DNA of 64,000 nucleotides from Marsupella aquatica (lineage: Eukaryota; Plantae; Marchantiophyta), in NCBI GenBank assembly GCA_973895155.1, contig OZ316891.1, positions 20,534,169 through 20,598,168 of the forward strand, in the 5' to 3' direction. Positions 1,716-59,246 of the stretch are shown here, in pieces. The position numbers and the translations under genes were made by a program. Position 1 is the first letter of the stretch, and the number at the start of each line of letters is the position of its first letter. A model generated the notes under the pieces. The model was not told where the DNA came from and searched no databases. It saw only the letters and a program-made list of their open reading frames with translations.

Positions 1716-4626
1716 TTACGACCCATTACTAAAATCAGCAAACATGGCTTCATATATTTCTTTATATGTCTCACGTGATAATGCTGCCTCCTTCATCTCA
1801 TGATAAGTGAGCCTGGAGCTTTCTTCGATCATGCTCGAAACGTCTCTGCTACTAAGGAAAGAAACCACTTGCCTCATGTTGGGCCTCATCTTGCCATCTT
1901 CTTGCATGCACAGCTTGGACAGATCGACCAAGGTCTCCAGTTCATGGGCATGGAAATCACCGTTTAGTCTGTTGTCTACCAACTCATGATACAGAGATGG
2001 GCTGCGTAAGTATGGAGCTGCCCAGGAAACCAGTGAATCCGCCTTGTGGACGGCTTGGTGACCCGAGATAAGCTCCAGAAGGACCACACCGAAGCTGTAC
2101 ACATCACTTTTGGGGGAGAAGACCCCGGTCAAGACATATTGTGGATCCAAGTATCCAATGGAGCCCTTCACAATAGTCTCGAATGATTGGAAGGACGTGG
2201 CATCCACTGGGGCAGCTTTGGACAGCCCAAAGTCCGCGAGCTTGGCAGAGTTCGTTGTTGTGAGCAAAATGTTCCGTGATTTGACGTCCCTATGCACAAT
2301 GGGGGGATTTGCTTCATGGTGGAGGTACTCCAACCCATGGGCAACGTCGGCTGCAATTTTGACTCGTTGCTTCCATGTGATCACATTGTATACTCCTAGT
2401 TCCATGGAATTCATAGATTTCTCTGACGGGGAGGGCAACACGGATTGATGGAGCCGATCATAGAGACTCCCATTTGGAAGATACTCAAAGACCAGCATAT
2501 GCCGACCTGCAAAGATTAAATCTAGAGTTAGTCTCTTGACGTTGAGGGTTAGGGTTAGCTAGCTAGCTCCAGTGGCTATCTCCATCAGGAGGCTCAACAG
2601 ACATAATTATGTAAGACTTGAAAACCAGCTTTCGGGTTTATCACATAAATGAATTTCAAATATACATTTTGTGAGTGAATTGATCTGAATTAGGTGTCCG
2701 AGTCCATGGAGGTGATTTGGGATGCCCTCCAAACACTTGCAATTTTTACTTGTACCTCTGTGACTGCAAAATCCAAACAAGTTCACGAGTTGTGGTAATA
2801 AATATTTCAAACGTACATTTTATGAGGGATTTGATCTCATATTAAGTTCGGAATGAATGGAGTTGATTTCAGATGCTTCCTACGCAATTTCAACATGTAC
2901 CTTTGTGGATACAGAATCCAATCAAGTTCACGAGGTGGCGGTGGTGAACTCTCAGCAGGACAGCGATCTCATCCGAAGCGAGGACTTTGGAAGAAGAATA
3001 TGGCCCTCTCGGTTTCTCCACTTTCACAGCTCCCACCGTGCCATCGGGAAAGTCGGCTCTGTACACGGTTCCGAAGCCGCCTTGTCCGAGAACGGAGCTG
3101 AATTTCTTGGTGGCTATTCTCAACTCTTCTAACGAATATAGTCTGGCATGCTCGGTCTTGTACAGACGAGAGTAATATTCGCGTTCTCGACCCCGCTCTC
3201 GACAGCCCCTGATTCTATATACAATTGCTACTATAGCAATGAGACCCACCAGTCCCCCGATTGATCCCGCTACTGCAAGCATAACCCTTTTTGAACCACC
3301 CACTGACTTCTTTCGCTGCACTTCGACCGTGTCAATCATCGGCCCACAAGAACCATTGAAGTTCAAGCTGCTAAAGGAAATCGTTGTTACATTGGCCGAG
3401 GCTTTGAAGGTCACTGTCTGCTGCGTCCATGATGCCGCCATAGTCGTAGCGTTCAAACCCGTGACATTCGTGGTGAATTGGTGTCTTATGTCACTCCCAT
3501 TGATCTGGAGCCCCATCGACGATATGTCCGTCCTCGTCGCATTAGTCACCTGCAATTGCAATCGAGCACCACCTTCGACGTAGGTCGAAGTGCATGCCCA
3601 GTTTGGCCTACCTGGTACGACCTTGACGTCTGGAGGGAACCCAGTCATGTAGAAAGTCAGGACGTACTCTTGCCCAACATCCGTCCTGAACGTCTGACTG
3701 ATCGAGCCATTGTGATCCACGTCCGTGTGCGTATTCAAATGAATGCTGTGCTTCCCATCTTGAGGTGTGAGGAATCCCGTACTCACATAATCGATGGGGC
3801 CGTAGTCAATGACCCAGCCACAAAATGAGAGGTAACTAGGATAAGATTGGTTCCAGGCGCTTGCTGCTATGTTATCCCCTGACAGAATGGTGCTGGTTTC
3901 GAATCCTCCATTACTGATCTGACCCTCCGAGTCGAGCGAAAAGTTCGAGAGCTGAAGCAACCCCTCGGTTGTGAATTGGTTAGTAGATCCTTGAGTAGAT
4001 CTGATAACGAAGTTCGCCGTGGGTAGAAATGTAAAGCTGGACGTGTAGGAAAATTGATCCGAGGGTTTGGAGTAATTGGCGATGAACAGCGGATATGTAT
4101 AATTCTGGTTACTAGGATTCGTTCCCAGATCGGGAGGAGCAGCCAGAAGGTAGTACTGTTGCCCATTTGGATCAACAAGGCCATTTACCAAACTGTGGTT
4201 TTCGTAGGTCCACTGCTGCGTGACGACAGACGAATTGCACGTACGGAGTTTTAGGACGCTGGATTCCCAGGACACGGCATCGAGACACAGGTTCCTCGCG
4301 GGGTTCCTCGACGGTATTGAGAAGGCAATGCTCCTGGTAGAGTTCTGGTAAGACCAGACCTCGTTAAACTGAGCGCCATCGCATCTGTACAAGCCCACTG
4401 TCCGGTTCCAGTCCGATTCATGGCCTGGGTGTGTAAACGTTGAATCTCCCAGTGCGTTGATGCAATACTTACAAGTCGGTAGTTCTCCCGAATCAAAGAC
4501 TCCCGTTGTGATCCAGCCGAATTCGGACTCATTCTTTGCTTGCACACGATCCCTGAGCAGTAAGAGACTGACACAAAAAAGCGTCAACATATACGAAATC
4601 CGACACAAGTAAACCATGGACAACAT
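1716..4626 (-). CDS. Receptor-like kinase: signal peptide, ricin-B-type lectin domain, DUF642/galactose-binding-like domain, TM helix, RD Ser/Thr kinase. Exons 4626-2901 and 2506-1716
   Basis: Hydrophobic N-terminus; lectin-like LCLDA and QQWTY; DUF642-like ISNGGFE...GPIDYV...ISQTFRT...CGPMIDTV; TM VMLAVAGSIGGLVGLIAIVAIVY; kinase motifs LGQGGFGTVY, AVK, HRDVKSRNILL, DFGLSK, GSIGYLDPQY. A GT-AG intron at 2900-2507 joins ...IHKG/RHMLVFEY in frame. Confidence 0.93.
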
Positions 4627-4829
4627 TTGAAGCTATTGAATCCCAACACGCTGTGAAGCTATTACCCTCCTGTACGGATATCTATGGCAACCACGATGCT
4701 ATGATCTGTGACCGAATTGAAAACAAAGACCGGACGTAGGGTGGTCGCGGTCGTGCCCCGGCTACTAGAAACGCTACATACGAAACTGGCAATCTTTCAA
4801 TCTTTCAAGGTAAAATAATATTTCTGAGT

Positions 4830-16707: not shown

Positions 16708-17030
16708 TATGACAATAGTGAGAACACTTCCACAAAGCCAGCATGGCCTCTATGACAATGCACTTCTCCAATTAAGACAAAGTGGCTGCAACAGCTACAT
16801 GACTGTAATGAGAACCCGACCACAACAAGGAGTCTTGCAAGGAGTGTGCACCGCACAACCATTGGGCAAAATGGTCAAATTTGTCAAGTTGGTGGCGCTG
16901 CTGGCTCTTGGCTTTGGGAATAGAAAGGCGATATATTGAGAAAAGCTAGTCAATTCACGGAGATCCTGCAAAAACATCAGGATGTGCTATTGGATAGGGT
17001 TTTTTTGAGGTGGCAACTGTTGAGTATTGC
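16708..17030 (+). repeat. ~323-bp direct repeat, copy 1
   Basis: Near-identical to 39004-39327 (tatgacaatagtgagaacac...ggcaactgttgagtattgc). Confidence 0.95.
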
Positions 17031-18167: not shown

Positions 18168-18539
18168 TTCACTAACCCAGAGTTGTTGTTATAATTGTCA
18201 TCTTGGTCACTAACCCAGAGCTGTCGGCTCAGTTATCTTTTTGCTCTTGTCTCGTTCACTAACCCAGAGCTGTCGGCTAAGTTATCTTTTTTGCTATTGT
18301 CTCGTTCACTAACCCAGAGCTGTCGGCTCAGTTCATTTTGCTGTAAGAGTCATCTCTTTCACTAACCCAGAGCTGTCGGCTCAATTAACTTCCTACTCAA
18401 TTCATTTTGTTGTAACAGTCATCTCGGTCACTAACCCAGAGCTTTCGGCTCAGTCCTTTTTGCAATAAAAGTCATTGCTCACTAACCTAGAGCTGTTGGC
18501 TCAGTTAACTCTCTGGTCAGTTCATTTTGTTGTAACATT
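18168..18539 (+). repeat. Array of 7 repeats with the conserved core cactaacccagagctgtcggctcagtt and variable linkers
   Basis: Cores at about 18170, 18208, 18258, 18307, 18360, 18429 and 18480. The array is cut by the copia insertion and a partial unit resumes at 36274. Confidence 0.9.
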
Positions 18540-18795
18540 TGTTAGATATTGCTCTAGTCTTGTGACTCATGAGCTAACTATAGTTAGGCTAACTCGGGTT
18601 AGGACTTAGCTATTGTTAGCGGTAGTGCTATTGTGTTTATAGCCAGGGCTGATGCCAGACAATGGTGGAACTTAGGCTGATTGTTACGGAGCTAGTTGAG
18701 AGATAGGGAGAGCTTTTGCTGTGGATGCTTGGAATGGTCGGTCGGCCTAGAGTGCAGTAAAGCTCTTGTGTGTTCCCGTGGACGTAGCCTCATGA

Positions 18796-21453: not shown

Positions 21454-24400
21454 TCAAACTTGGTCCTCATCATCTTCAGGTTGGGACACAACCAGAATAT
21501 CAGGCTTTTCCCCAACGATTGAACAAGACCGTGGCACATATGTGATGACAAGTGACCATTCCTCTGGGTTTGGGGGGTATGGAATATAGAAACATTATTC
21601 CACATGACTTGGAAAAGTGAACGGCTCTGATGTTTGCCAATGAGATGGCTGGAAACTAGTGGCAGACGTCTTCAGTCGTGTAAATCCACACTCATCTTGA
21701 ACCACAGTAGGATTGTTACCTGCAAGGTTCACTTTGAACCACTTGCACTTGAAGACATACTCTTCAAACTTTGATTGTGCATCATAAGATATCACTAGAA
21801 TCTCTTCTACCTTTCCATAATGTGGCACAACATCTCAAATAATATTTGTGTCATGGCGACTGCTGCGGGAATCTTGAGAGAATTGTCCTTGAACTCCACA
21901 ATCAAAGGTACGACCCCTCTTCTCATCAAGGGAAGAAATCCTAAAATCCATCAAACCATAAGGATATGTTACACAAAAATAGACACAAACATATTCCAAT
22001 TAATTGAACACACCAAGAATCTGCCTCTTCAATATACGTGCTTGTATTACAAATGAATTAAATTAAACCAAGTGATTCAAATCAAAGGTTACTAAGGTAG
22101 ATGGAGATCACCTGAAATGTCTTCCTTGTGTCCACATTGCTGTCCTTGTTGTAACCACTCTCAAGGGACCATGAACAATGGTACGAACATCATCTGTGAT
22201 AGCCGGAAAATGTAATACACTCTCTCCCCTGACCACCATGTCATCCACCTCAACTAACGTCTCCTTCATATAGTCAAGGTACTTTGGAAAAATCCTTGGT
22301 CTTGTGCTGTTACTTTTGGCATCCTCATAGAAATCCCTCCATTCTTCCATGATAGTGCTGTTACTCAACATGAATGTGGTCAGTTGTTTCACCTCCACTG
22401 GTGTCAACATGCGAGTTTTCCTAGCACCTGTTAAACGATCCTCTTCATCTTCCCTCTCCTCTACCCAAGTACGGGGAGAGGTACAATCAATTGTGGCCAA
22501 TATGTTACTACAATAGAACATACTCTCAGCTGCTAAGTATCCTGTAGCCATGCTTCCCTCAACCCGTGCACGGTTACGTACATAACCTTTTAACACTGCC
22601 ATGTATCGTTCTAGCCAATACATCCACCGACAATGCACAGGACCTGCAATGGCCACCTCATGAACAAGATGAACAAGTAAATGCACTTGACAATCAAAAA
22701 AGGAAGGAGGAAGGGCCTTCTCCAACTTGCATACCACCTCTGCTGCCAAAACCTCCATCCCAAGGATCTCATCAGTATATATCTCCTTAGAGCATACCCA
22801 TCTCAATAGTCTTCCCAATGACCAAAGGGCATCTTGCACTTCTTCACTTGCCAAACCTATTATGGCCACAGGCAATATGTGCTACAATAACCTATGGTAG
22901 TCATGTATCTTGAGATACCTTGGCCACTTATGATTGTCCTCCATCCCAAAGGCCTTTCAGAGATTGGCACCATAACCAGTAGGAAACCGCATGTCTCCTA
23001 TGCAATTCTGAAACTCCCTTCTCTGGCCAATAGGAAGCACCCATGGAGCTGAAGGTCGATGCCCGATCCCTGTGATAGGATCACTTATGACCCACACGTC
23101 TGGATGCATCTCAAGATCCTCACAAGCCTCCCTGAAGTTAGTGTCTTTCTCTCCATAGAAAGCCTTTATCAAAGCCTTTCCCACATTTCCCTCAATGTGC
23201 ATGGGGTCTAATAGATGGCGGATCTTCAACTCACCCCAATAGGGCAAAGTGGTTAATATACTCCACCTTGTCAAGCCACTACCGTCAAATTGCATGGGAT
23301 CCTCTGGGTCTGCCACTCTTGCAGCCATGTCTTTCCAGTGTGTAAAAGTTGTTGGCTCAGGTACATCACGCTCGTCACCAAAGGGCATATCAATAGAGGA
23401 AAATAGTAGTGGGTCACGCCTCATCTGATGTCCCATTGGAAGAAACTTTGTATGCCCAAGATAAACAATCTTGCGAAGATGTGATGAGTACTTGGCTACA
23501 TCACCAAGGCTTGGGCCACAAGTGGAGCAAGCCTTGTAGCCTTGGGTTTGCAACCCACTCACAAAGCCAAATCTTGGTCATATAAACACACATTATGTTA
23601 GGATTAGCACATGGAAATGAGGGGATACCATGCATTAGAATATGATGCATTTAAACAACAAAGTTCTTACCTGGGTAGTCATGCATGGTCCACATACAAA
23701 CCCCTTTGAGTTTGAAAACCCGTGGGGTACCCCTTGTAGTCTTTCGACCATCATATGCCCATACTCCTTCCCATAATTTCTGGAGTTCCTGAACCAGTAA
23801 TGTCAAATAGGTGTCCATGTTCTTCACCTTCTTTGGCCCTGGGATAATCAAAGATAGCAACAAAAAACCCTTTTTCATGGACAACCATGGTGGAAGGTTG
23901 TAATTCATGAGAACCACAGGCCAGACCGATGTAGGTCTCCCCTTCCCTCCAAGTGAATGAGGGCTAACTCCATCTGATGCCAACCCCAGTCGCACATGCC
24001 GAGGGTCACGCTCAAAATCTGGCCATGTTGATTCCACATGTTTATGAGCAGGAGAGTCAACTGGTAATCGCATGACACCGGGCTCCGAACGATGTTTCTT
24101 GTGCCATACCATCAACTCGGCCAAGTCAGAACATCTATACATGTGCAACAAGCGAGGAATTATGGGGAACCAACGAACTGCTTTCCTTGGTACCTTCTGG
24201 GTTAGCATGTTTGGCTCATACCGTGGCTCATGACACATTGTGCATTCTGTGATATGGGCTGTATCCCCGTGAAATAACATGCAATCATTCACACAGGCAT
24301 GAATAATATGGTAATCCATACCAATGGATGAGAGAACCTTCTTTGCATCCTTCCAGGTCCCTGGCAACACATTCTCCGAGGGTAACATCAAGTCATGACA

Positions 24401-26225
24401 ATATTCAAATATGTCTGATAACATAGAATTGCTTGTCTTGTGTTTGGCTTGAATGTTCAAGAGCCCCAATATGGCAGAAAGACGGCTTAACCGAGCACCC
24501 TCAAAAATAGGTGTTCGAGCATGTTCCTCTGCCTCTTTCCATTGTTGTTGTCCCTCTGGAGTATGTTGTGGCCATGGGTCATTTGAAGGGCCAACCTCAT
24601 GACCAATGTGAGGCACATCATCCTCAACATCGGCACCAAACCAATCAACCATGAAGTCATCCATGGCTCTATCTTGATCATGCATGACCTGGTCATCAGT
24701 CCGAGGTGCGGCTTCCTCATCAGCACCACCTACATCATTACTTGATGAGGAATCACCCTCTGATGGTTCTCCCTCTTCTGGCATACCCATCTCCCGATAT
24801 GTTGCTCTCAACCTTCGTGGTAACATTTGTTGAGATGGTTGCGCATTCTATGCACATTACAACCAAAAAACCTCCTCATGTATATTTGACCAAGTACAAC
24901 AAATTAAAATAGACTTAACACCATTCATTCAAGACATTAAGAATTAAAGTAAATGCATGGGCTAAAACCTTATTACTCCAAAATGAGCCCAAAGGCCATA
25001 TATATAATAGTAAATGGGAAGTCCAAAATAGGTGCAAGAGGATAAAGGACATGATTTCCTAATCCCACTCATAGTGTGTGAATAACTCATCTCCTGCTCT
25101 AATGGTCCTAGTAGCAAGAACTAAGCAATGGTCCTTATGATATGTCGTGCCATATGGTGCCGGCATTGGACCATCAGTAAAAACCCACTCACAATTGGCC
25201 CTACGCTTGGGCCGAGTCCCCACAGTACTATTTATGAAACCAGCAATATTCCCATTATGTATGGGATCACCATCTATCACCCGCTGCTCACTATACATTC
25301 TAGTGCTACCATCAAAAGTATCCATCTCTAGAGCATATGTTTTCCACTCAGGATGTTGTGCAAGGATCATGTTCCAATGTCTTCTCTTGTAGATGGGTCC
25401 ACCGTATGGGAACAAAATAGGACCCTCTCTACCACGAACACTTGACCCACCCTCCTCATCCATGATGATATCCTCACAAGCAAATACTCCATATCCATGT
25501 CTCTCTCCAAGTGTGGAAGTTTTCACAATCCAACGTCTACCCCAAACCACAATCTCCTCATCAAAATCTGTAAAATAAGGCAAGCCAAGAGTGATAGGTT
25601 CCCAATCCTTGATGATAGAGGCACACTTGCCAGTGAATGAACAAACACCCCACCTACCCTGAACTAGTGTTCTGGATGGGTCATTGGGTGCTCGTGGCCT
25701 CCTGTTGGATTGGGGCCTGGACCGGGGTCTTCGTGTCTCAGTGGGCACATGAGGGTGTTCCCCTTCTGTCCCATGACTGGTACTAATTCCCAAACCCAAG
25801 GCTTGTGAAAGTGCATTGCCTATAGCATCTAAAACTCCTTGTGATGGGACATAGGGTGGTGGTGTCACCAATCTACGCATACTGGATCCCTATTCCATGC
25901 AAACACCCACAAACAACCAAATGTGCAAACCATATGTGTAAACATTGATTCACCTCTAAAAATAACAGTAAAGAACGGCAATCAATTGAAACAAACTTAC
26001 CATATGGGATGAAGAAGCCCCGGGAGTAAGACCTCTATGACGTCCATATCTCTCAATATGTTGAGCACACACATAAGATTTTTGAGAAATTTGGCCCACA
26101 CATCTGGTGCAGTCACAAAGTCTTCGGGGTGGACCACGAGGACCAGTAACCTCGGGCTGAGGAGGAGGGGGTATATCGTCATCGGAGGAGTACTCACTAT
26201 TGGATAGTTTAGAGGAAGAGGACAT
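21454..26225 (-). pseudogene. CACTA TnpD/Tnp2 (Transposase_21-type) transposase, disabled. Exons about 26225-26001, 24847-23671, 23573-22111, ~21960-21454
   Basis: Cys-cluster first exon (LCDCTRC), IHACVNDCMLF, RLGLASDG, SVWPVVLMNYNLPPW, MHDYPG, HLLDPMHIEGNV, PPSFFDCQVHLLVHL, RWMYWLERYM, FKCKWF. Premature stops near 22957, 22885 and 21595. The acceptor at 23575-23574 reads AA instead of AG. Confidence 0.9.
25059..25889 (-). CDS. SET-domain protein exon inside CACTA transposase intron 1 (putative lysine methyltransferase)
   Basis: Uninterrupted 273-aa ORF with SET motifs VKTSTLGERHGYGVFACEDI, YGGPIY, IDGDPIHNGNIAGFINS, ANCEWV, LVLATRTIRAGDELFTHY. AG acceptor at 25891-25890 is in phase 0 with the exon-1 donor at 26000. 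Confidence 0.82.
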   Translation of the reverse strand, partial: GSSMRRLVTPPPYVPSQGVLDAIGNALSQALGLGISTSHGTEGEHPHVPTETRRPRSRPQSNRRPRAPNDPSRTLVQGRWGVCSFTGKCASIIKDWEPITLGLPYFTDFDEEIVVWGRRWIVKTSTLGERHGYGVFACEDIIMDEEGGSSVRGREGPILFPYGGPIYKRRHWNMILAQHPEWKTYALEMDTFDGSTRMYSEQRVIDGDPIHNGNIAGFINSTVGTRPKRRANCEWVFTDGPMPAPYGTTYHKDHCLVLATRTIRAGDELFTHYEWD

Positions 26226-30215: not shown

Positions 30216-31402
30216 ACAAGTTGTAGCTAGAGCACTTACATCGAGTTCACATGTATAGCGATCAGCATGCATGGCCGTGGCACTTTACCTAAGGGTTTTT
30301 ACCCTTCCATTTTGTAACTTTTGTACTTTTTCAGTAATGCCATTTTAATTGCGGCAGACTGGGTCAACATCACTTTCCTCCCTCCTTCAAAACCCATGAA
30401 TGGTCTCCCTCACCCTCACCCTAACCCAAATACACAAAAACCCATGAAATATACATTTTGCAAAGCTTTTGAGAACCAACCCCCATCTCAAAGAGCCACG
30501 GTGAACGTATCGCAACCATTCCGAGGAGAAACGCATCGCAACACTTGCGATGTTGTCTAAATCACAACCCTAGCAAAGACTTCCTCTCCACACGTTTGCG
30601 AGTTAAATGCCTTCGCAACAAAGCGGTCATCCGCTTCTCGCAATCTTACGAGTTTGTTTGCATCGCAAGTTATAGAGAAATTTAACATCGGAAATTGCTA
30701 TGTAAATGTTATCGCAACGCGAGCGATTCATTTGTTCTCACAAAATAATGAAATTTGTCATTTCTCAATATTTGCAAGGACAGTACCGTCGCAACGTTGC
30801 GAAGATGTTGCGACGTATTTAGAATCGCAAGTTGCGAAGTAGTTGCGAAGGGCCGTTTGCGAAGAATTTGAGATGGGAAGTAGCGAAGACGTTGCGATGC
30901 GAGTAAGTTCGCAAATTGGGTATTTTGGATTTTGTTTCCTTTGTATGATGCGAAGGGTGGTGGTTCGCAAAAGAGGTGCATAGTGTTGTAGTGGCAGTTG
31001 TAGTGCAAGTAGAGTTATTTAGCAATGTATGACTATCTGTATATGGATTGCTCATTCCTGTTTGGCTACGGCTTAGTTCTAGTTAACCCTTAGTTAACCC
31101 TTGTGGTTTTTAGGGGGAGACTTGATTTGGTGATTGTCTAGAACTTCCCGCTGAGGATTCCATATGGTAGCATTTAGTCCAGTCCCCAAGACAAGAGTCA
31201 AGGGGAGTTTGTTAGATATTACTCTAGTCTTGTGACTCATGAGCTAACTACAGTTAGGCTAACTCGGGTTAGGACTTAGCTATTGTTAGCGGTAGTGCTG
31301 TTGTGTATATAGCCAGGGCTGATGCCAGACCCTGGTGGAACTTAGGCTCATTGTTACAGAGCTAGTTGAGAGATAGGGAGAGCTTGTGCTGTGGATGCTT
31401 GG

Positions 31403-34400
31403 TGTGATGCCTAGCCAGGAATCACTAGGCCGGTTTACATGGTAAAAGCAGGAGTGTACCCTGGAAACACCTTAGTATAGTAACAAGACAAGGAAAATAT
31501 AAACAATTAAGGGTGACTATGGAACCCGGGCCGAGGCCGAAAGTAAGGACGCTGGGGGAGAGAACACGATTAGGGTTAGGGCGCGCTAAGCGTCGGCGGC
31601 TAGGGGTGACCAACGGGAGGAAAGACCAGAGGAGGAGAGGGGTAAGGACCACTCGCGAGGAATAGTGGCTCATTTGCAAGCACGAACTGGGCAGACGACT
31701 ACGGGAGGCCAAATACTGTCAGCTGCTTAGGCAAGCACTCTGGGTGGGAACAGATACCAACAATCAAGTCAAGAAGGGTATGAGCAACGTCAATCAAGCG
31801 ACACATTTTTGGGGATGCCTGTTCGAACGGGCAACTGAGTACATTGGGACTTACGAGGATGAAGAATCAGAGAGAGCAGCTCAAGAACGGCAAGAGCTCG
31901 CTCGATTGTGGGAGCTATAGAAGTCTGCCTTCTTAGGAGGAGAACTCATCAAGGCTGAGTTCTTGCGGACTCCTACTGCCAATCAGCTCGATGACCTTCT
32001 GTTTTGCGAAGACAGAATCGTCGGCATTTGGGAAGCCATCAACCGCTGCAACGACGCGCACTGGGAGTTGAAGGGTAGCACGGAAGGGTGGACAAAGGCA
32101 ACTGTGCTAGGAGAAACATCCACGGCAGCCAAGATGAAGAGGAAAGGAAACAACAACAAAGAGGCCACCCCGGCAAAAAGAACGAGGTCGGCGGCACCAA
32201 GGAAACCAGCAGAGCAGCAGAACAAGAGGCAGGGAGAAGCCGAAGAGGAGGAGGTCGATCCCATCAATGCCATTCCAACAAATGATGACACCTAGAAAGG
32301 CTGGGCGGCGACCCTACCAGAGGAAGTGCAATTACATTTTGCACGGGAGGAGGATGCATGCTTTACGGCCATGCAGACCAAGAAGTACCAGGGTTTCATG
32401 GCCGGATCCGGCTTGGAAGCCTTTGTGAGATTACCATGCCTGAAGCCGGAGGTGCCGGACTCAGACTTATTAGAATTTGTGGGATCATGGGAACCCGAGA
32501 CCAATTCCATGAGGGTGTATGGGAAAGATTTCTATCTCACTCCCAAGGTGATTGCCGAGGTGTTTGGCTTGCCGATGGGTAATAAGACCAAGGTTGATAC
32601 CAGGAAGACCTTACCTGACAAGGAGTTTTGGTCGTTCCCAGGACCATCAACAAAGAATGGCTTCTTCCGGAACACCTACACCAACCCGCACATCGGAGAG
32701 ATGATCAATTTCTTGCGGGTGACCATGCATTGTAACTTGCCGAGGGCAGAGATTGGCAAGGCTCAGGTCTACCTAGCAGAAAGGCCAGATCCAAGCCAGG
32801 ATTACAACGGGTACCTCCTCAACCAACTGAAGAAGATCTTGAAGGAGGAACAGCAGGCGATCGGCGTGGGAAGCGTGTCCCGGCTTGGCTATCACATGTC
32901 GCTGTTGTGCCGGTATGCCATAAGTCAAATCTTTGCCCCAGTACTTCCCCTATGTGCAAGGGCACTGGAGGAGGTTCCGGAGCAGAGGCCGGCAACAGAA
33001 GAGCCCAACCAGCTTGCCAGTCCTACGATCGAGCAGGTGTTTTGGCCAAGGAAAGAAGACTTGCCGATGCAGCAATCAGGCATGCAGCAATCAGGCTGGA
33101 GAAGGAGACAACGGCACCAGCAACGGCAATGGCACCGGTACAGGACACTGCCCCAGAGGTCGGCCTAACCCGACTCAGGAGGGAAAACCCCTTTACCGGA
33201 GCCAAGGAGAGAAGGAGGCCGGAACACAAGCTGGGAGTGCGAATGTTTGTGGGAGCCTCAAGCCCCGAATCAGAGGCAGAGCAGCTTAAGGCTCCTTCCC
33301 ACGGAGAGCAAAGGGAGAGGACAGCCTGGAACCCAGAGGAGGAACAAGGGCCCGTGATCTGTGAGGCCGTTTTCACTGCAGGACCAGGGGAACAGAGGGG
33401 GAAGCAGGGAGTCCAAGCATTGGAGGAGGCGGTGGAGGACTACAGCAATGATAACTCCAGCTATGGGTCAGATCATCATGTTCCAGGAGTAAGGACCTGT
33501 GGCTGATTTATCCCCACGCTTCCAAGAGTAGTTCGAGGGGACCCCACCCAGCAGAGTAGCCCCGAGTCTCCCCCACCAGAGGTTGCTCCCCCGAGCTTTG
33601 ATGGCATAAAGCAGACGGCACAAGACTTTCAGGAGCGACTTAGGGAGGAAGAGAGGGCAGCCCTGGCTAGGGAGAAAGATTTACCAGGAGGAGATTGGCC
33701 GAAGGACATCAGTCGGCTTGCCGAAAAAAGAAGCAACCCTCTTGCCACCGTAGAAGAAATCCGCAAGGCGGCTTGGGAACAGAGGCCGAGGTGGTTGTTG
33801 CCGATGACTTCTACTTACTCCACCTATGCTAAGGATAGAGCCATGGAGTACGGGGAGATGTGTGGGGACCTGGCGCTCAGCATCTTTGGGGAGGACTTGG
33901 AGCAAGGACCTTTCTTCCAGAGGGAGAGGTTGGAGAAGCACCGATTAGAAGAAGCGATGGCTTTGGAGAGAAGCAAGAAGGACGAGGTCATTCGGCGGCT
34001 TAGGAAGAAGGAAGCCGAGGTGGAAGTCCTGCAGGCGGCCAAGAAAGCCCAAGATGAGCTGCGGATTAAGCGGCATGAGCTAAACATCATGCAGGGGCAG
34101 TTGGATACCGCTCAGTCTGACAATCAGATTATCAAAGATAAACTGACTCGGACCCAAGGAGAGTTGGCCGGCGCAGTCAAGGAAAGAGAGAAATGGAAGC
34201 GGGAGCTAAGGGACGCAGAGGAGGCCCACTTAACCGCCAACAACCGGGCCATGGCGGAGACTCAAAGAAGGGAGAGGGCGTTGAAAGGAGAGCTCGAAGA
34301 TATCCGTGGAGCCCTTGAGCAGAAGGAAGCAGAGTTAGGGAAATCCTATCAAGGGATTATTGCGCTGCAGCAGGAGCTTGCGTCCCTGACAGCCAGCTTC

Positions 34401-36112
34401 AAGGCCGACCTGCGTGAAAAGGACGACCAGCTCGACCAGACTTATGCCAAGATGAATAAGATGGAGTCTGTGGTCGTAGCAGAGCTCGACAAGGAGCTAA
34501 GAGCAACCCAGGAGGAGAGAGCTACCTTAAAGAAAGAATTGGAGGAAGCCAAAAAGGAGCTGGAGGAGGCGTGCAAAGACCTGGACGAGACCCAGGAGGA
34601 GTTGGAGGAAATCACGAGGAAGATGGAGAACCTACAGCGGCGGGCCGACATCCAAACGGAGTGGCTGAAGAAACAAGCCGCAGTATTTAAATGCTTGGCT
34701 TCATCAGGTCCAACTCCAATTGGGGCAACCCAGTTACCAGGGGTAGTATTGGCCGAAGGACAAGCCGAGACACTCACCCCGGTGCCGGAGGTAAGTGGCA
34801 AGGGGAAGGAACCGGCTGTCGAAGTAGGGAAGAAGAAGAAGCGGAAACCTTCTAGGTCTGGGAGTTATACGACTTCTCAAGCCGTTGTGACCGAGAAGAT
34901 AAACCCGGCACCAACCTCCGGCATCGACACGGCGATGGATCCACCAATCCTAGGAAGTGGGGATGGCAAGGCCGAGGCCGGGACAACCAGTAGTGAAGCC
35001 GAGGTACCAGATCCTCCACTAGAACATGTCGGGGAGGCCGTGGCCGATGCTGAGGCCGAAGCCGAGGGTGGACCCAGTCAAGCCGATGAAGAGTTGACTC
35101 GGTCCGGGGCAGGTAATATGTCAGAGGATGGACCGACGGTAGTGGCTGCGGGGGAAGCATTGGGGGCGTCCATTGAGGATCCGCCACTGGTTTCGTGACG
35201 ATGCAAGGGCGCCATTCCTTTTAGGAAGGGCGGACGTGGAGGCAGGAGGCGTGAGTGGGCAGGGCGGGCGCTGATCTCCAAGTTTAGACTAAGGATCAGG
35301 ATCAGGAGACGGCCCTGACACTTAGATTAGTGGGATTGCGGATCCACGAGTAAGGGCGATACTTGTGCTCTTGCCTCGCTATACACAGGTAGATTACAGT
35401 TAGGTAGATTACAGATAAGTAGATTAGGCTTACGTTGCAAGGAATCAGGCGGATCCACAACCAGGATAAGTACCTGGGCTGCGGGGAGTTCGGGGCCTCT
35501 TCTTTAGCAAGTTTTTAGTTGCACCAGCAGGGCTGGGATCAAGTAGTAAGAGAAGCTCTTGGTTAGTTATACAGTGACCCTTGTGTATATTCATGTTTCC
35601 TCATGCCTAAGAACTGAATAGAGTTGGCCTCACGGCTTAGTTTGTAGAGCTTGTGTATGAGATGTACTGTTTGTATGGCAAGTGCATGGTATAACTCAGT
35701 CAGAAGGAGTCATTTTGCTATTTGTGTGTCGCATTAACTTGTGTGAAGAGTGCCCACATCAAAGAAGGGAAGTAGCAAAGGAGTGAGAGATGGATGTGTC
35801 GAGCTGAGAGAGGTCTTAGCGGCTTAACCAAGCCAATTGGGGATCATTTCGGCGGCAGAATCCAAACATACCTAATGGAAGACCAGGAGAGGAATACAAG
35901 GGAGGGCCTAGAATAGGCCGGCTAAGTATCTCATGACCCGATGAAGGATCTGTCCAATATATGTGTGTAAAATGTTAATAGTAGTAGTAGAGGGGATTAA
36001 CAGCATCCCATGCCGCTAAGCCGCAGAAACGGCCTCGTCGAGGATGAAACCTGTGGGAATCGGCTTGTGTGGGGGGGTTTCTTGGGTTTGGGGAGCCATG
36101 GGAAGCACCACA
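31403..36112. mobile_element. 4.7-kb TG...CA element (giant solo LTR or deleted Ty3/gypsy-like derivative) inserted in the copia 3' LTR
   Basis: TGTGATGC...GCACCACA termini (7/8 inverted match) with 5-bp TSD CTTGG (31398-31402 and 36113-36117). Removing it restores the copia LTR as seen in the 5' copy. Confidence 0.85.
31519..35198 (+). pseudogene. Degraded long ORF (~1200 aa) of the TG...CA insert: plant-mobile-domain-like N-terminal half plus long coiled coil and acidic tail
   Basis: ATG 31519, ORF 31963-32295 and ORF 32326-33168 share one frame, interrupted by TAG codons. Frameshifts lead to the 32907-33506 and 33795-35198 frames. LLEFVGSW...RVYGKDFYLTPKVIAEVFGLP resembles gypsy-associated accessory/PMD-like domains (inference). 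Confidence 0.6.
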
Positions 36113-36697
36113 CTTGGTATGGCTGGTCGGCCTAGAGTGCAGTAAAGCTCTTGTGTGTTCCCATGGACGTAGCCTCATGTGGAGGTGAACCACGTATCTC
36201 TTTGTGTCGACTATTGTGCGTTGGATGGTTCATGGGCTTGCCGTTGCGAATGTCGTCTATGCTCAACAACATTGTCATTCTCTAACCCTGTGCATGAGTC
36301 ATCCTCGGAGTCATCAATCTCTCTTTTGAACAGTCTTAAGTTTATTAATGTCCAATGTGGAGTCACAGTTGCTAGAAGAGTTACCAGAAGACTAGCTTAT
36401 ACAACATCAGACATTGGAAATTTTATTTTAGAGAACATAGAAGCAATAACCCCTCATTGTGTAAGAGACGTAGAGTTTCAATTGTTGGGTGATTTTTCGT
36501 CAAGGTAACCATAAAATATTTGCTGGTCCATTTAGAATATTAAAACCCACAGAAAAGACAGGGGAAGAGGAAACTGTTGTGGAGTCAAAAGCCAAGGTTT
36601 TGTTCACTGTGAAAGTAGACGATATATATCCTATCATTTTGTTTGAGCTACGTGACTGTATCTGTTCAACCTCTCGTGAGTTGTGTGCACATTTAAC

Positions 36698-37946
36698 ATG
36701 GCTTCTTTGAAACGTAAAGCTCGTGCTATCATCCAAGAAGATGTTTCTTTAATGGACAGTGTCATGGAACTCAGTATTATAGTGGGATATCTTGGTGTAG
36801 ATGTGCATAGTGAAGAGTTGAGTCTGATGGACACACTGATACGATTGTTTATTTTGTCTAGTAGCTCTAGAGAGAGGAGAGTTAGAGAGTCATTTGCACA
36901 TGCAAATGGTTGTAAGAGCCAGAATCAAATCTGCCAGGTCGTTTGGTGTCCTTGTTAGGAAATACATGGGTTGGTAGGGTGTGAAGAACATGAATCCTGT
37001 AGGTAAAGTGATGTGCAAATCCTTGAGTAATAGACAATTGCATACATTCAAAGGAATGATAGGTTATTGTTTGAAAGATATGGGTAAAACTCATTTCTTG
37101 CATGCAATGTATAAAATTTCTGATGAAGATGTGATTGCAGGAAAACAACTGCATTCTATTTATGTGCGAGCTGATCTTAAGTCCAGAGTGACTTTGACTA
37201 ACAAAAATGTTGTAGAAAGAATGTATGTTTGGTATAAGTATAGGACAGATAGACCTTTGTATGCCACATTTCTTTATACACTAACTGAAATGATGAAATC
37301 TGGGATTTTTATTCTTGCATCTAGTTGGATAATTCCATTAAATGGACAGGGCATGGAAAAATCCAGAATGACATGTCTTTGTAAATGTATAGTTGACCCA
37401 TGCAATGTGACTAAGGTTGAAATTGAAGAAGTTTTTGTACGAAAACCTAGGACTGGCAGTTGGGGAAGATATCATACTGATTCTGAGATTGCAAATGATG
37501 AAGAAGCTTCACCAAGGAGTACAAAAACAAAACTCTCACCCCAAAAGAGTTGTTTTAAGAGATTGAAGGTGAAAACAGAATCTAATGGAAAATCTGTACA
37601 TTTTGATGATCTGTTTACAGAGTCTGTCATTCCTGGAAAGGGAATAACATTTCAGTATCCCCTTGGTGAATATGTATCTGTGAAAGATAGGCATAGGGTT
37701 CCCAAGAATGATTATATGGAGACAATTAATTTGTTGGAAAAGCCTATTGCAGGGGTGAGGAAAGGGAAACAGAAGGTAAGAGATGTGACAGAGCTGGTAG
37801 AATTGTCCTCTGATGATGAGAAATTAGCTTCAGCTGCTGTGTATGAGGATAGAGGCCAAAGTAGTCAAATGAGAAAGGAAAGAGTCTCTATGTTTGGAAA
37901 ATCACTTTCCAAGGTGAAAAGTGAATCATTTCACAAGATTTCATAA
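36698..37946 (+). pseudogene. Replitron-type HUH (Y1) Rep transposase with a frameshift near 36845 and an in-frame TAG at 36975
   Basis: Motif I-like ELSIIVGYLGVDV; motif II ALERGELESHLHMQMVVR (HLH at 36891-36899); motif III LHTFKGMIGYCLKD (single catalytic Tyr, YxxK). No helicase follows, which matches Replitron rather than Helitron RepHel architecture. Confidence 0.82.
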
Positions 37947-39003
37947 GGTATGTTTGTGTTATTTTTGTATGTGTATAAAATGTTCTATTTTTGTTTTTGA
38001 AATGGCTGGGATGGCGGGAAGGGTGTAGGGGCTAGTGGGTAAGATAGGGGGTTCTTTGCTTGGAAGGCTGCATCTCGCAGTTTGGGGTTCAATTCCCCAT
38101 CAGAGATATTTCTGAGTATATTAAGATACAAAATAATGAATTTGCAAAGGTCACCGAAGTACTCAAAGAAAAAGTTGTAGACATTTGTTTTATTTTCCTT
38201 CCAATGTCGGCAAAAAAAATTCCGGCATTGTTTTTTGGTATTTATGCAGGAAAAAAAATTCCTACATTATTTGGGTTATAGCACAAATTGAATTGTTAAT
38301 TTATTTTATGGCAGTAAAATAAGAAAAGAAACACTAGTGTTTGTTTTTCACATAGAGGGTATGGACTTGACCATATGGCTATTTCTTTTAGAAATACATT
38401 ACTGCAAGAGTGTATTAAAAGTTTAATTTGCTAAAAAAACAATCTAGAACAAAAAACATAACGTGGTTGCTCCATATATTTTTGAAGCTGCTATATGGTG
38501 AATGCACATTTCAGATTTTGTCTTATTCAGATTTTTGTGTCATGTATTTTCATTTCAATCTGCCTTATCAAGGGGCAGCCTTTGTATTCTATACATTTTT
38601 AATTAATTTTTAGACCCCTTTAGTTTTAGGTATTCTAGAGTGTTTTGAACTTATTTTGGCAGCCCCCTTTCACAGTATGTGTTTTCTTAGAGATGAAACC
38701 AAAGGCTCCACCACCACGAGTGAGAGAAATGATGCTGAAGAACATGAATGCATAGCCTCTTAAGTTCTCCTCATGTTTTTCTTTCCTAGGTTTATGGTTT
38801 TTACTGAAAGGAGTGTCATTCATAAGGCACCGTGAGTTATGTGCACACATTGTAGCATTGTTTGACTGTACCTTTTCTTGGTCACCGTGCTTTTCTTGGG
38901 AGACACTTTACTTATATAACAGCACTTCTATGCTCTCATATTTTATTTTATTTCAGATCACTACAAGACAAAAAATAAAGCATGTTCTTGGATGAGCATG
39001 CCA

Positions 39004-39327
39004 TATGACAATAGTGAGAACATTTCCACAAAGCCAGCATGGCCTCTATGACAATGCACTTCTCCAATTAAGACAAAGTGGCTGCAACAACTACATGACT
39101 GTAATGAGAACCCGACCACAACAAGGAGTCTTGCAAGGAGTGTGCACCACACAAGCATTGGGCAAAATGGTCAAATTTGTCAAGTTGGTGGCGCTGCTGG
39201 CTCATGGCTTTTGGAATAGAAAGGCAATATATTGAGAAAAGCTAGTCAATTCATGGAGATCCTGCAAAACATCAGGACGTGCTATTGGATAGGGTATTTT
39301 TTTGAGGTGGCAACTGTTGAGTATTGC
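39004..39327 (+). repeat. ~323-bp direct repeat, copy 2
   Basis: Near-identical to 16708-17030. Its last 13 nt are the start of the solo LTR at 39315. Confidence 0.95.
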
Positions 39328-50500: not shown

Positions 50501-52484
50501 GTCCAATCACTGCCCTCCTTCGAGCAGATTGGCTCTGGAGAAGGCAGGAAGTCATCCCGCCTGCATGCTGCTGCAGCGCGTACGCCGGGCTGGGTGCTGG
50601 AGAAGAGATTGACGAGGTGGCTCTCACTCCGCGGGCAGAGAGAGGGACGAAAGAGCAAGAGGACATAGGGAGAGCGAGGGCAGATGGCGTGTTAGGAGGC
50701 TGATCGGATGGATTTATGAATCTTCATCCGGGTATTAATCTCGACGAAGCAACGGCTAAAGTGAGATGTGGAAAAGTGGGCACTGAGGTGAGGAGCTATG
50801 GGTAGGCGGTGGTGGTCTACGCTGGCGAAAGGTGGTGGTGGTGGTCCGGATTCCGCTCATTCGCTAGCCAGGTTTAATTTTGCATTGTTCGGAGAATCGT
50901 TGAGTGGTTTAGTTAGATTCGATAAGTTGTACCCTGTTGGGTTCCAATGCGATCATCTGCAATCCTATGTGAACGTTTCAACGAGTTGGGGAGGGTGACG
51001 ATTTTGTTTTGGAGGAAGTCGAAAAGATTCTGCTTGAGCGGGATAGCGAAGGGAGGTGCTTGCACAGTGCGGGTGTCTTGAGGTGGGTGGGCATTACGGA
51101 GGGAGGATCAGCGTTTTGCAGTGATCGGTGCTTTCCTTCGTGGTGGAGTGGTGCTGTGTCCTTACGTGGTTGGACTGGGATTCACGAATCGGACGAGGAG
51201 CGTTGTTGATTGTGCACTCCGGTGAGGCTGGCTGGGGCCTCAAAGCTGGTTAAACGAAAGGCAAAGGAAAGTTTTAACTGGAATGGAAAAGTTCTGAATG
51301 GTGACCGGAAGTGCCAAGGTGTGGGGCGGACTGGCTGTTTGGGTCGGGGCTCTTGGTATTCTTTCTCCTGGGCTCGCAAATTGCGGGGGCCTTTTGGCTG
51401 GTCGGGAGCTGGAGCACTCGGGTGGAGCTTTGATTGGAGCTTGAGTGCAGCTTCTGAGAGCAGCGGAAGCTGTCTTCTCCTCTTGGGGCCTGTGCGCTCG
51501 GACGACTGCTGGTGTGCGAGCCTTTTTTTTCTGCTCCAGTGCGTTTGAAGCTACGGGAAACTCGGAGGTCTGCTGGTGATACTTTGTGGAGGCAGATTTT
51601 GAAGGTTGTGTGACCAACGTGCTAGGGGATTTATCGGTTTCTTGCCCGGTGACTGTCTAGGCGTCGCTTTGTGGTGGACTGGCGGCAACTTATCACCTCT
51701 GAACGTTTGTATCTGTTTGGAGAGTTGGGGAGAGTCGTGGTACGTGGTGATATACGAAGCTGGACGTCAGCGTGAGGTGAGAACAGAGACTGCTGCTTCC
51801 TTAATTTTGCAAATTCCAAGTTTGGATTGTTTTCGGTAGAACGGAACATACCTTTGAGTCAAGAGCCGGGGAATAGAATAAGGGATGGATTATAATGGAG
51901 CGAATGCAATGGGAGTTCAATGGGAGCCTCCGGCCCTCGTCGCCTAGCTGGGAGGGTCTTGGAAAGGAAGGATATGGGACTCGGAATGAGGAAGCATCTC
52001 GTGGGAAGAGAATTGCAACTCTTCATTTCGAGTACGCGGCCTTCCCTCTGAACGAGCATCATTAGTCAGCTTGCGTTAGTAAACTCTTCTTCAAACAAAA
52101 GGGCAGTTCTATCGAAGCTTTCAATCCTGGTTCTGCACCCTGTAGATCAAATCTATACCATTTTGTAGTGGCTGCTAATTTACCCGCAACTTATAATTTC
52201 TGCCGTCTATTAATCCACTAAAGAATTTCAGGAGGCAGTTGACCACATAGACTCTCTTGTAAAACAGCATGAGTGCTCTCATCCAACAATCTAGTCTGAT
52301 ATGAAGTTCCAATTCGGCGGTCGGCAGTGGACGAAACATTGAAGTGCTTAGAAAATTTTCAACCTCGTTGCATGATTGTGTTTGATATAATCATCTGACG
52401 CCCAATGTACATTGTGTTCTTCGTATTGACGCGGTCAGAGCAAACTACTGTGTCCCATCTCATCTCGCAACAGTGGATTGAGCT

Positions 52485-54377
52485 ATGATAGTCTACGAAG
52501 GTAGCGAGGCGGAGCAGCAGCAACAGACTGTGGGGGCTTCATTCTCCGTGGGCAGAAACGTGGAGACGTGGTTACAACGTTCGCAAGAGCTGGCGAATAT
52601 TGTAGGTGGCGAGGCATCCGGAGTGAAGGCATTTCTGGGAAGATGGAAGACTATCAGGAGCCGGTTACTGCAGCTGCCAGCCCTGTTGAACGAGCTGGCC
52701 CAGACGCCATGCTTTCTTCAGAACTCCTTGATTTTGGAGCTCTTGGAGTCCATTGTTGGGAGCCTGGAGGAAGCCAAGCAGTTGGTCGATAGGTGTACGG
52801 AGCTTAGTTATGTGGGTAAGCTCCAAATGCAGAGCAATCTTGATGCTCTTGCTGCCAGGCTAGACTTGCACATACACGATGGTCAGCTCATGCTCAAGAG
52901 TGGAGTGCTCAAACAAGCCCCCGTGGTGCCAACAATGGCCACACCAGAAACCAGTAGGGAGGCAATGCGATGGACTATTAAGGACCTCCTTGCCCGTCTG
53001 CAGATTGGCAACACCGAATCGAAGCAGAAAGCGTTGGACACTCTCGTAGATTTAATGCATGATGATGACAAGAACGTCCTCTTTGTGGCCAGCCAAGGGG
53101 GCATTTCTGCCCTGGTCCACTTACTGGATGTGAGCTTACCAACTCTCAGAGAAAAGGCCGCCTCTGCAATCTGTAGCCTGGCATTGAACGATAGCTGTGA
53201 GCACCTCGTTGTCAGCGAGGGCTCAATTGCTCCGCTCGTGAGGTTACTGGATTCTGGCAGTTCACTGGCGAAGGAGAAGGCTGCCTCCGCATTACAGGGG
53301 TTGGCCTACACTGCGGAAAATGCCCGAGCAGTGGCTGCACATGGGGGCATTCCTGCTCTCATCGAGCTCTGTCGAATCGGCACACCTGCCACTCAAGCAG
53401 CAGCAGCCGGAGCCATCCGAAATCTTGCCGGGGTAGTGGAAATCCGAGCCGGTGTAGCGGACGAGGGGGCCATTCCCATCATGATCAATCTGATCACTTC
53501 AGGGACAGCAGTAGCACAGGAGCATGCAGCTGCGGCACTCCAGAACCTGGCTTTGAGCGATGACAGGATGAGACAGGCAATTTCCAAAGAAGGGGGCATT
53601 GAACCTCTCCTCAGATATTTGGACAGCACAACTAGCCCTCGAGCTCGAGAGATCACAGTCGAAGCCCTCCGCAACATAGCGGCCTCCCCTGCGAATTCTG
53701 AATCTTTGATTGAAGCTGGATTTCTTCCCAGGTTGGTTTCTGTGCTCAGAATTGGGCCTCTCACTGCTCAGCAATCCGCAGCTGAGGCTGTTTGTTACTT
53801 GGCCCAGTCGGAAGACTCTCGGCAGGCTCTTGGGGAGGCGGGCATCATTCCCCCTCTCGTGAAAATGCTCGACGCCAAGACAAGCTGTGCACAGGAGTTT
53901 GCTGCACAGGCCTTATCTCGCTTGTTACAAGTGGAGAGCAATTGCAAGGAGTTTATGTACGAGGAGCAGGGTATTCCTGGTCTGGTCCAGTTGCTAGACA
54001 TCCGCAACACCACCATCGCCAAGCAATTCCCAATCTCTGCTCTCGCTGCTCTTGTGGGCAGTGCAAGATGTCGCAAGCAGATGGTTGCTACCGGTGCTTG
54101 CGTCCATCTTCGAGCTCTAGCTGACACGGACGTTGCCGGAGCAAAGCGGCTGCTGGAGCGCCTCGAACGAGGCAAACTCCTGAAGATGTTCTCCAGAAAG
54201 ATGTCGTCGAAGAAGGTACTTTCCCCCCACTTTGTTCTGCATGCAATAGTAGTAGCGGTCCCATATCTAGCTCTGTTGCTCTGTTTGCTCTTGACTGTGG
54301 CAGCTGCCTCTCCTGAAATTTCCCAATGGTGGGCTGACTGCGTGGTCATGTCAAGGGAATTTGTCTGTCAAGAGTGA
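52485..54377 (+). CDS. Armadillo (ARM)-repeat protein of the plant Vac8-like family with an N-terminal helical domain. C-terminus may instead be spliced (54215 to 54469-54483)
   Basis: 630-aa ORF with about 8-9 ARM repeats (GGISALVHLL, GSIAPLVRLLDSGS, GGIPALIELC, GAIPIMINLI, GIIPPLVKML); N-terminal GRWKTI...GKLQMQSNLDAL; C-terminal GAKRLLERLERGKL typical of this family. Confidence 0.9.
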   Translation: MIVYEGSEAEQQQQTVGASFSVGRNVETWLQRSQELANIVGGEASGVKAFLGRWKTIRSRLLQLPALLNELAQTPCFLQNSLILELLESIVGSLEEAKQLVDRCTELSYVGKLQMQSNLDALAARLDLHIHDGQLMLKSGVLKQAPVVPTMATPETSREAMRWTIKDLLARLQIGNTESKQKALDTLVDLMHDDDKNVLFVASQGGISALVHLLDVSLPTLREKAASAICSLALNDSCEHLVVSEGSIAPLVRLLDSGSSLAKEKAASALQGLAYTAENARAVAAHGGIPALIELCRIGTPATQAAAAGAIRNLAGVVEIRAGVADEGAIPIMINLITSGTAVAQEHAAAALQNLALSDDRMRQAISKEGGIEPLLRYLDSTTSPRAREITVEALRNIAASPANSESLIEAGFLPRLVSVLRIGPLTAQQSAAEAVCYLAQSEDSRQALGEAGIIPPLVKMLDAKTSCAQEFAAQALSRLLQVESNCKEFMYEEQGIPGLVQLLDIRNTTIAKQFPISALAALVGSARCRKQMVATGACVHLRALADTDVAGAKRLLERLERGKLLKMFSRKMSSKKVLSPHFVLHAIVVAVPYLALLLCLLLTVAAASPEISQWWADCVVMSREFVCQE

Positions 54378-58740: not shown

Positions 58741-58817
58741 CCCACCAAGCCATTCTAAACTTAGTGGGTCTGGTTGAGTAGGTTGGTTTAGTTTGGGGTC
58801 CCACCAAGAATATCTTT

Positions 58818-59246
58818 CAAGAAAAGCACACTGACCAATGAAAAGTACAGTCAAGTTTTATGACACAAAGATGCTACTATTTGTGCAGTTAATTCAATGT
58901 GCCTTATGAATGACACTCATTTCAGTAAAGAACATAAACTAAGGAAAGAAAGACATAAGGGGAACTTAAGACAGTGTGCATTCATGTTATTCTGAATCCT
59001 TTCTCTCACTCATGAATATACTTTGTCCAAGTGGTGGAGCCATTGGTTTCATCTCTAAGAGATCACAAACTTGAAAAGTTATAAGGGGGCTGCCCAAATA
59101 AGTTCAAAATTCTCTAGAATACCTAAAATTAAAGGTGTCTAAAAATTAATTTAAAATGTATAAGACAGATTGAAATTAAAATACATGACACAAAAACTCT
59201 GAATAAGACAAAATCTGAAGTGGATTCACCATATAACAGCTTCAAA
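58818..59246 (-). repeat. Inverted homolog of the Replitron 3' non-coding region (38481-38900)
   Basis: Shared blocks such as tctagaatacctaaaa, aaaatacatgacacaaaaa, ctgaataagacaaaatctgaa, ggtttcatctctaaga and gtgccttatgaatgacactc. Confidence 0.85.

Follow-up and report, generated by a model that had tools for sequence, protein, structure and literature searches.

Positions 36698–37946 of the window, by which we mean the whole 64-kb stretch of DNA that was analysed, almost certainly hold the remains of a Replitron transposase gene, and a compact tRNA-like module lies behind it on the same strand. As defined in PMC10288648, Replitrons carry the motifs SUTU, a Glu, HUQ and GYxxK, followed by a second helical domain, and have no helicase. 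According to that paper the metal ligands of an intact transposase would be Glu, His and Gln, and the enzyme's one tyrosine would nick and join single-stranded DNA; the enzyme is probably multimeric through its second domain, and the elements move by copy and paste without excision, with host processes supplying the single-stranded DNA. A preliminary description of the locus had pieced the gene together from two reading frames, and its reading contained neither the tRNA-like module at 38053–38106 nor a small Cys/His ORF upstream of the gene. The features of the copy are the following.

36269–38480, + strand: outer limits of the Replitron copy, from contig depth, loose ends and a repeat boundary
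36474–36710, + strand: 78-codon ORF with C-x-C-x6-C-x-H at 36657–36692, overlapping the start of the transposase by 13 bases
36698–36841, + strand: 5' gene piece of 48 codons from the ATG at 36698, with a basic N-terminal LKRKARA stretch and the motif I region
36773–36784, + strand: motif I (SUTU in PMC10288648), here S-I-I-V, with the conserved Thr changed to Ile at 36779
36842–36845, + strand: frameshift with a net loss of about 5 bases (alignment rows P0002, P0006, P0009 and P0011)
36846–37946, + strand: 3' gene piece with the Rep domain, the second domain and a 160-residue tail that has no family match
36870–36872, + strand: conserved Glu, proposed third metal ligand (Glu in 108 of 116 relatives)
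36897–36905, + strand: motif II, HUQ as His-Met-Gln (His in 111 of 117 relatives, Gln in 109 of 116)
36975–36977, + strand: in-frame TAG stop, a sense codon in sister copies
37062–37076, + strand: motif III, GYxxK, with the single catalytic Tyr at 37065–37067 (Tyr in 149 of 153 relatives, Lys in 149 of 154)
37269–37436, + strand: Replitron C-terminal (second, possibly oligomerisation) domain, below its cut-off (PF21860, E 0.0098)
38028–38038, + strand: box A-like 11-mer with mismatches to the consensus, 47 bases ahead of box B
38053–38106, + strand: compact tRNA-like cloverleaf of 54 bases, 106 bases past the stop codon
38329–38342, no strand assigned: 14-base perfect palindrome, a candidate sub-terminal right-end hairpin (region 38280–38420 has a DNA fold z of −1.89)

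The transposase gene and its decay

The segments from which the gene had been assembled lie where they were first placed. ELSIIVGY begins at 36767, in the frame 36680–36958 that contains the ATG at 36698; ALERGE (36864) and LHMQMVV (36894) lie in the next frame, which meets the TAG at 36975–36977, runs on through LHTFKGMIGYCLKD at 37038 and closes at 37946. The proposed frameshift join is upheld because the upstream piece adds 18 bits to the read-through: with an X at both breaks the protein scores 303.6 bits against the relatives' profile, versus 285.5 bits for the downstream part alone. The 5' piece by itself scores 10.4 bits (E 4.4e-05) and covers positions 15–47 of that profile. Word searches yielded six close relatives of 52–69% identity, and a profile search yielded 617 proteins at E 0.001 or better, of which the best 150 were considered; the relatives' profile and alignment comprise 155 proteins.

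The assignment to Replitrons was borne out by the profile check that the preliminary description had proposed. PF21859 (Replitron_HUH) matches 36855–37943, with X at the stop, at 51.9 bits (E 1.3e-13, cut-off 28.5), no helicase is fused to it, and neither a Helitron nor a CRESS Rep is the best match. PF21860 (Replitron_C) reaches 16.7 bits over 37269–37436, below its cut-off of 27; in the alignment this second domain is colinear with the relatives up to profile position 264. Among 27 of the 155 relatives that were scanned with Pfam, PF21859 occurs in all 27, PF21860 as well in 15, and a helicase family in none. The tail of 160–161 residues matches no family. The encoded enzyme is of the helicase-less Y1 Rep type of Replitrons.

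Most of the Rep motifs are as first described. A single Tyr and the lack of a helicase stand, but the histidines at motif II had been taken for an HUH motif of the form H-L-H. On the conservation among the relatives, motif II is H-M-Q (HUQ), the Replitron signature of PMC10288648, and not H-L-H: the earlier His of H-L-H-M-Q is retained in only 47 of 114 rows. The Glu at 36870–36872 owes its role as a metal ligand to a proposal of the same paper. Motif I is retained in position and in its Ser (82/90 in the relatives); its Thr (84/97) is present in the close relatives P0002, P0009 and P0025. The basic N-terminal stretch is also seen, by eye, in a fern protein of Craig Dataset S5.

Decay of the copy is evident from several directions. 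At 36842–36845 four bases in the window stand against three residues in the close relatives. Besides the two breaks, six conserved sites are altered in a majority comparison within the relatives' alignment: the motif-I Thr, Gly at 36855 (70/114), Asn at 37113 (122/149), Gly at 37164 (125/146), Pro at 37314 (85/122) and Trp at 37380 (93/106). On the strength of the frameshift, the stop and these six losses, the copy is dead and is predicted to be unable to make a working transposase; what had been called a hidden gene is a decayed pseudogene. The ratio of observed to expected CpG is 0.15 in the copy, versus 0.58 and 0.81 in two host genes. The stop at 36975 is probably private to this copy, since every contig that crosses the position in runs X1, X2, X4 and X5 has another letter than the window's, with the caveat that contigs drop variants.

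It is very improbable that the gene still functions and that assembly errors, an intron or recoding signals account for both breaks. As such a reading would have it, the stop is missing from the sister copies, and none of the contigs listed has the window's letter at 36975, which may be an error at that base; but the pieces are colinear with the relatives, the net loss of about five bases against close relatives leaves no room for an intron at the first break, and the six altered residues include the motif-I Thr.

The fold of the transposase was compared through an intact relative, P0002, rather than the window's own protein, to which P0002 is 55% identical. The structure model of this relative has a mean pLDDT of 91.2, and its best structural match is the circovirus Rep 7kii_A (Z 9.5, rmsd 2.8, 93 residues aligned), followed by other CRESS Reps, with nanovirus among the closest; a Helitron transposase reaches Z 5.1. 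Foldseek gave no match at E ≤0.001 against the PDB, and HUH Reps headed its list. The circovirus-like fold need not mean a virus origin, since PMC10288648 reports the same likeness for Replitrons. Reps from CRESS-DNA viruses (circovirus, nanovirus) and RepB of pMV158 share the HUH fold and one Tyr with the window's protein, and circoviruses also have HUQ; they are only about 10–19% identical to it, whereas the window's element is integrated, multi-copy and devoid of an SF3 helicase or capsid. Helitrons and IS200/IS605 likewise use HUH transposases on single-stranded DNA; Helitrons differ in having two Tyr and a fused helicase, and IS200/IS605 TnpA (Z 5.5) belongs to a distinct small Y1 family.

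Both other candidates were rejected. A Helitron should have a Y2 Rep fused to an SF1 helicase, and here there is a single Tyr and no helicase; an endogenous CRESS-DNA virus was set aside for lack of an SF3 helicase and of a neighbouring capsid gene. No helicase or capsid ORF lies near the transposase gene, and no ORF of at least 150 amino acids lies between 37946 and 48608. Apart from the nearness of the P0002 fold to circovirus and nanovirus Reps, nothing favours a Helitron RepHel fragment or a Rep from an endogenous CRESS virus, and with one Tyr only, no relative of the transposase in viral contigs, and Pfam and all 27 scanned relatives pointing to Replitrons, that origin is scarcely credible.

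The gene is an ordinary member of the Replitrons; the module is what is new. In the motif I region, Glu, HUQ, GYxxK, the second domain, the lack of a helicase and the presence of many copies it resembles the Replitrons of PMC10288648, from which it differs in that the window's copy is broken and decayed, and in that neither a tRNA-like module nor an upstream Cys/His ORF is described in the portions of that paper covered here. Among the Dataset S5 proteins compared, the closest come from two 1KP transcripts of Bazzania trilobata, a leafy liverwort, namely WZYK_1 and WZYK_2; WZYK_1 shares, by eye, 33 of 50 residues with the window's protein directly after the break. PMC10288648 gives no liverwort genomic consensus (Dataset S1) and has liverworts as transcripts only (Dataset S3). 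With this gene the Replitrons, a group described in 2023, gain one more member, a decayed one, and their liverwort branch gains genomic context.

Sister copies, limits and surroundings

The element occurs once in the 64-kb window and has many diverged sister copies. Over 36280–38365 (2086 bases), 175 contigs of run X1 can be aligned, 77 of them less than 90% alike; run X4, which like X1 is from organism A, gives 161 contigs with 66 below 90%, and two other organisms give 36 and 34. The abundance of Replitrons in non-seed plants, to which the preliminary description had appealed, is stated as high copy number in PMC10288648. A metagenome scan for relatives returned a single locus, L001, of 1257 bases, a decayed and rearranged Replitron of plant type; the module is not in view within those 1257 bases, and the final 320 bases resemble an inverted copy of 760–1000.

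The outer limits of the copy are set by its neighbours. On the left an LTR ends at 36268, whereas other copies of this LTR run on into the primer-binding site; on the right a high-copy repeat starts at about 38450–38481. Direct or inverted repeats that might mark the element's ends were sought, and nothing rose above chance; the candidate ends share only matches of 6–9 bases, which is chance size. Neither the true ends nor terminal direct repeats could be located within 36269–38480.

The small ORF upstream of the gene is probably inside the Replitron element, since sister copies, which show small indels here, cover it. Its CxC-xn-CxH motif, which occurs once in the six frames of the window, is followed by a hydrophobic stretch and looks like a SWIM zinc finger. 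No homologue was found among proteins of 42–137 residues, PDB sequences, Pfam or the atlas, and a single-sequence model of the ORF has a pLDDT of 47.

The neighbouring genes are of plant type (ARM/U-box, receptor-like kinase, CACTA transposase), and with the closeness to the Bazzania proteins they point to a leafy liverwort as the likely host. The LTR on the left is part of a unit, LTR- or TRIM-like, whose uninterrupted copy lies at 18538–18794 and which is split next to the Replitron by about 4.7 kb into 31208–31402 and 36113–36268 (95% and 94% alike); the insert of about 4.7 kb contains a 563-codon coiled-coil frame at 33507–35198, and a more diverged copy of the unit begins at 39322. The AT-rich, high-copy repeat at 38481–38903 recurs inverted at 58813–59246, 76% alike. 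A 325-base duplicate links 39004–39327 with 16708–17030 at 96% identity; it has low contig depth and is unclassified. A broken CACTA transposase (Transposase_21, DUF4218) occupies 22108–25889 on the − strand, and directly upstream of it, on the same strand, lies a SET-domain ORF at 25059–25889 (E 3.3e-06), perhaps a histone methyltransferase domain that was captured or is carried by the element. The − strand at 1716–4632 carries a receptor-like kinase gene, split over two frames, with the unusual pairing of an extracellular beta-trefoil lectin domain and DUF642. An ARM-repeat gene without introns (DUF7032, ARM region of the plant U-box type) lies at 52482–54377 on the + strand.

The tRNA-like module and its counterparts in Isoetes

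The module is built as a shortened tRNA. Acceptor arms of seven bases form six pairs; a GG linker takes the place of the D arm, and is followed by a stem-loop of 4–5 bp and by a T arm with a 5 bp T stem and a 7-base T loop. An exact box B stands at 38086–38096. The box A-like 11-mer was judged, as was box B, against the consensus of the type 2 polymerase III promoter, in which the two boxes lie 30–60 bases apart. Four T in a row first occur in the window at 38188, not straight after the module.

It is not a canonical tRNA gene, which would have a full cloverleaf with D and anticodon arms; ARAGORN finds 0 tRNA genes in the window. The Rfam family mascRNA-menRNA aligns end to end over 38053–38106, weakly, at 20.6 bits (E 0.77) against a cut-off of 42.5. 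A cloverleaf pattern, composed after the site was seen, has one match in the window, at the module, and 1 match in 100 shuffles. In viral contigs the exact module pattern occurs in four stretches, one of them within a tRNA-Gly gene. Folded alone (55 bases), the module is dominated by the cloverleaf, with most pair probabilities at 0.85–1.0 and a z of only −1.29; when the surroundings are included (121 bases in all), the T stem alone is predicted, the acceptor pairs falling to about 0 and the middle stem to 0.09.

Sister copies bear on the module in several ways. Contig cover peaks at the module in four of six runs (X1, X2, X4, X7), with little or no cover there in X5 and X8. In run X7, from organism D, two contigs cover exactly 38053–38106, and 37400–38029 is uncovered; one contig differs at 9 positions without gaps, and the other has 5 differences and 4 gaps, its listed insertions falling in the middle stem-loop. 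Gene and module are joined on contigs from 37951 to 38047 in X1 and X4, and from 37242 to 38082 in X7, where the joint is weak, its short side being only 25 bases. Sister copies with C at 38056 turn the T-G pair of the acceptor stem into C-G.

A similar module is found in three of the 16 land-plant Replitron consensuses of Craig 2023, all from Isoetes, as compared by eye and without a covariance model. Replitron-2, -4 and -5 of Isoetes engelmannii were picked out by their T arm in a seed search; by eye, all four parts recur in these families in sense orientation, 250–270 bases from the right end. Their 7-bp acceptor stems read TGGAGCA/TGCTCCA, AGGAGCA/TGCTCCT and AGGAGTA/TGCTCCT, and each module combines a GG linker of 9 bases with a stem-loop of CCGC/GCGG and a T stem made of G-C pairs (all by eye). 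In addition to the compact module near the right end, the three consensuses (Dataset S4) share with the window, by eye, a GY-x-G-x-D stretch after motif I.

The correspondence extends to pairing. Between window and Isoetes the letters of the acceptor arms are, by eye, wholly different and the pairing is maintained; one pair in the middle stem has changed from C-G to T-A, and one in the T stem from G-C to T-A. The linker TTGGAA is common to the window and Isoetes family 5, and in Isoetes a box A-like motif lies, by eye, about 44 bases ahead of box B. The Isoetes families differ from the window in the acceptor letters, in the distance of the module from the stop codon, which ranges from several hundred bases to more than 1 kb, and in the four T that directly follow the acceptor arm in families 2 and 5.

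No such module is present in the other 13 consensuses, of which 10 were inspected whole or nearly so and three by seeds only; the seed search can miss sites at line breaks, and several consensuses are marked incomplete. Replitrons in general thus do not require the module, and the three Isoetes families, being close relatives, count as about one event. The shared parts and the maintained pairing nevertheless suggest that the module is probably a real, element-borne feature that the window's Replitron has in common with those of Isoetes.

Possible roles of the module

We consider the locus to be a dead Replitron with a compact tRNA-like module behind its gene, likely an RNA polymerase III mini-gene, and put the probability of this overall reading at roughly three in four. 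For the module taken by itself, the role of a polymerase III mini-gene or small internal promoter is tentative; it is favoured here because the box A- and box B-like motifs and the T runs fit a promoter. Boxes A and B would recruit polymerase III, and transcription through the right arm might open the DNA near the right end. The opened DNA could then serve as the single-stranded substrate of a transposase that has no helicase of its own, and the acceptor and T stems may have been maintained so that tRNA-processing enzymes trim the transcript. The source of single-stranded DNA for Replitrons and the role of their ends are left open by PMC10288648. Transcription-linked R-loops have been proposed in PMC3333891 as a source of single-stranded DNA for bacterial Y1 enzymes.

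A processing signal of the mascRNA or t-element kind is a somewhat unlikely alternative, in which RNase P, and RNase Z with it, would cut the mRNA and so form its 3' end. The position of the module on the sense strand shortly past the stop would suit such a function, as would its 7 bp acceptor and 5 bp T stem, the shape that RNase P and RNase Z read, and mascRNA-menRNA is the best full-length Rfam alignment; MALAT1 and NEAT1 take a route of this kind (PMC12941219). The mascRNA and menRNA of these transcripts (RF01684) resemble the module in their length of about 55 bases, in retaining acceptor and T arm with a reduced D arm, and in lying in the 3' part of a transcription unit. They differ in that the RF01684 score is far under its cut-off and in that they belong to vertebrate lncRNAs with a triple helix; homology is not claimed. 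By eye, no U-rich or A-rich triple-helix element is evident upstream of the module, a promoter accounts better for the box A-like motif upstream and for the T runs that directly follow the module in two Isoetes families, and the distance of the Isoetes modules from the stop speaks against the coupling of the module to the end of the message.

Less likely still, the module began as a tRNA pseudogene or as the head of a SINE of tRNA origin and is a passive passenger, acquired perhaps independently in Isoetes and in the window's Replitron. Boxes A and B and a type II tRNA-like look are typical of SINE heads, and the patchy distribution over the consensuses, with the Isoetes trio as about one event, agrees with chance acquisition. 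Summed depth in X1, which is not copy number and which true tRNA genes may inflate over the T arm, is nevertheless about 950 at the module, of the order of the transposase core (1400–2700) and not of the neighbouring repeats (10^4–10^6). A passenger would also hardly account for acceptor arms that differ in every letter and yet pair, or for the same strand and a similar distance from the right end in the window and in Isoetes; no SINE tail or target duplication is seen.

The module is improbable as a cluster of hairpins in single-stranded DNA, bound by the transposase in the manner of IS200/IS605 ends or CRESS origins and only incidentally like a tRNA. HUH enzymes do recognise DNA hairpins (PMC10288648), and the T-arm hairpin and a neighbouring one are predicted as DNA, but the folds fall short of significance (z −0.6 to −0.7), and the module lies about 250 bases inside the end. 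The letters of the T loop and the GG, moreover, are retained, and a plain hairpin would not need them. These letters matter for the tertiary shape of tRNA or for TFIIIC binding.

Extending the polymerase III reading beyond this copy, it is possible that a land-plant branch of Replitrons, with members in a likely liverwort and in a lycophyte, has a conserved mini-gene, a tRNA mimic, in its right arm and draws on polymerase III together with RNase P and RNase Z in its life cycle, for example in opening DNA; the window's family may also carry the upstream zinc-finger ORF. If true, a 54-base tRNA-shaped element in distant plant lineages would tie a DNA transposon to the tRNA machinery, giving it a built-in tRNA mimic. 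The main text of PMC10288648 uses none of the terms polymerase III, RNase P, cloverleaf and tRNA, the last of which its appendix lacks as well, and the module is described in no title or abstract found on Replitrons or on tRNA-like elements in transposons, in a search that covered subscription journals thinly and lay outside preprint supplements and Dfam entries. The consensuses of Dataset S4 hold a further feature: in Replitron-1, -3 and -4_iEng and Replitron-1_aNel, a second coding stretch seems, by eye, to follow the stop of the transposase across a gap that looks like an intron.
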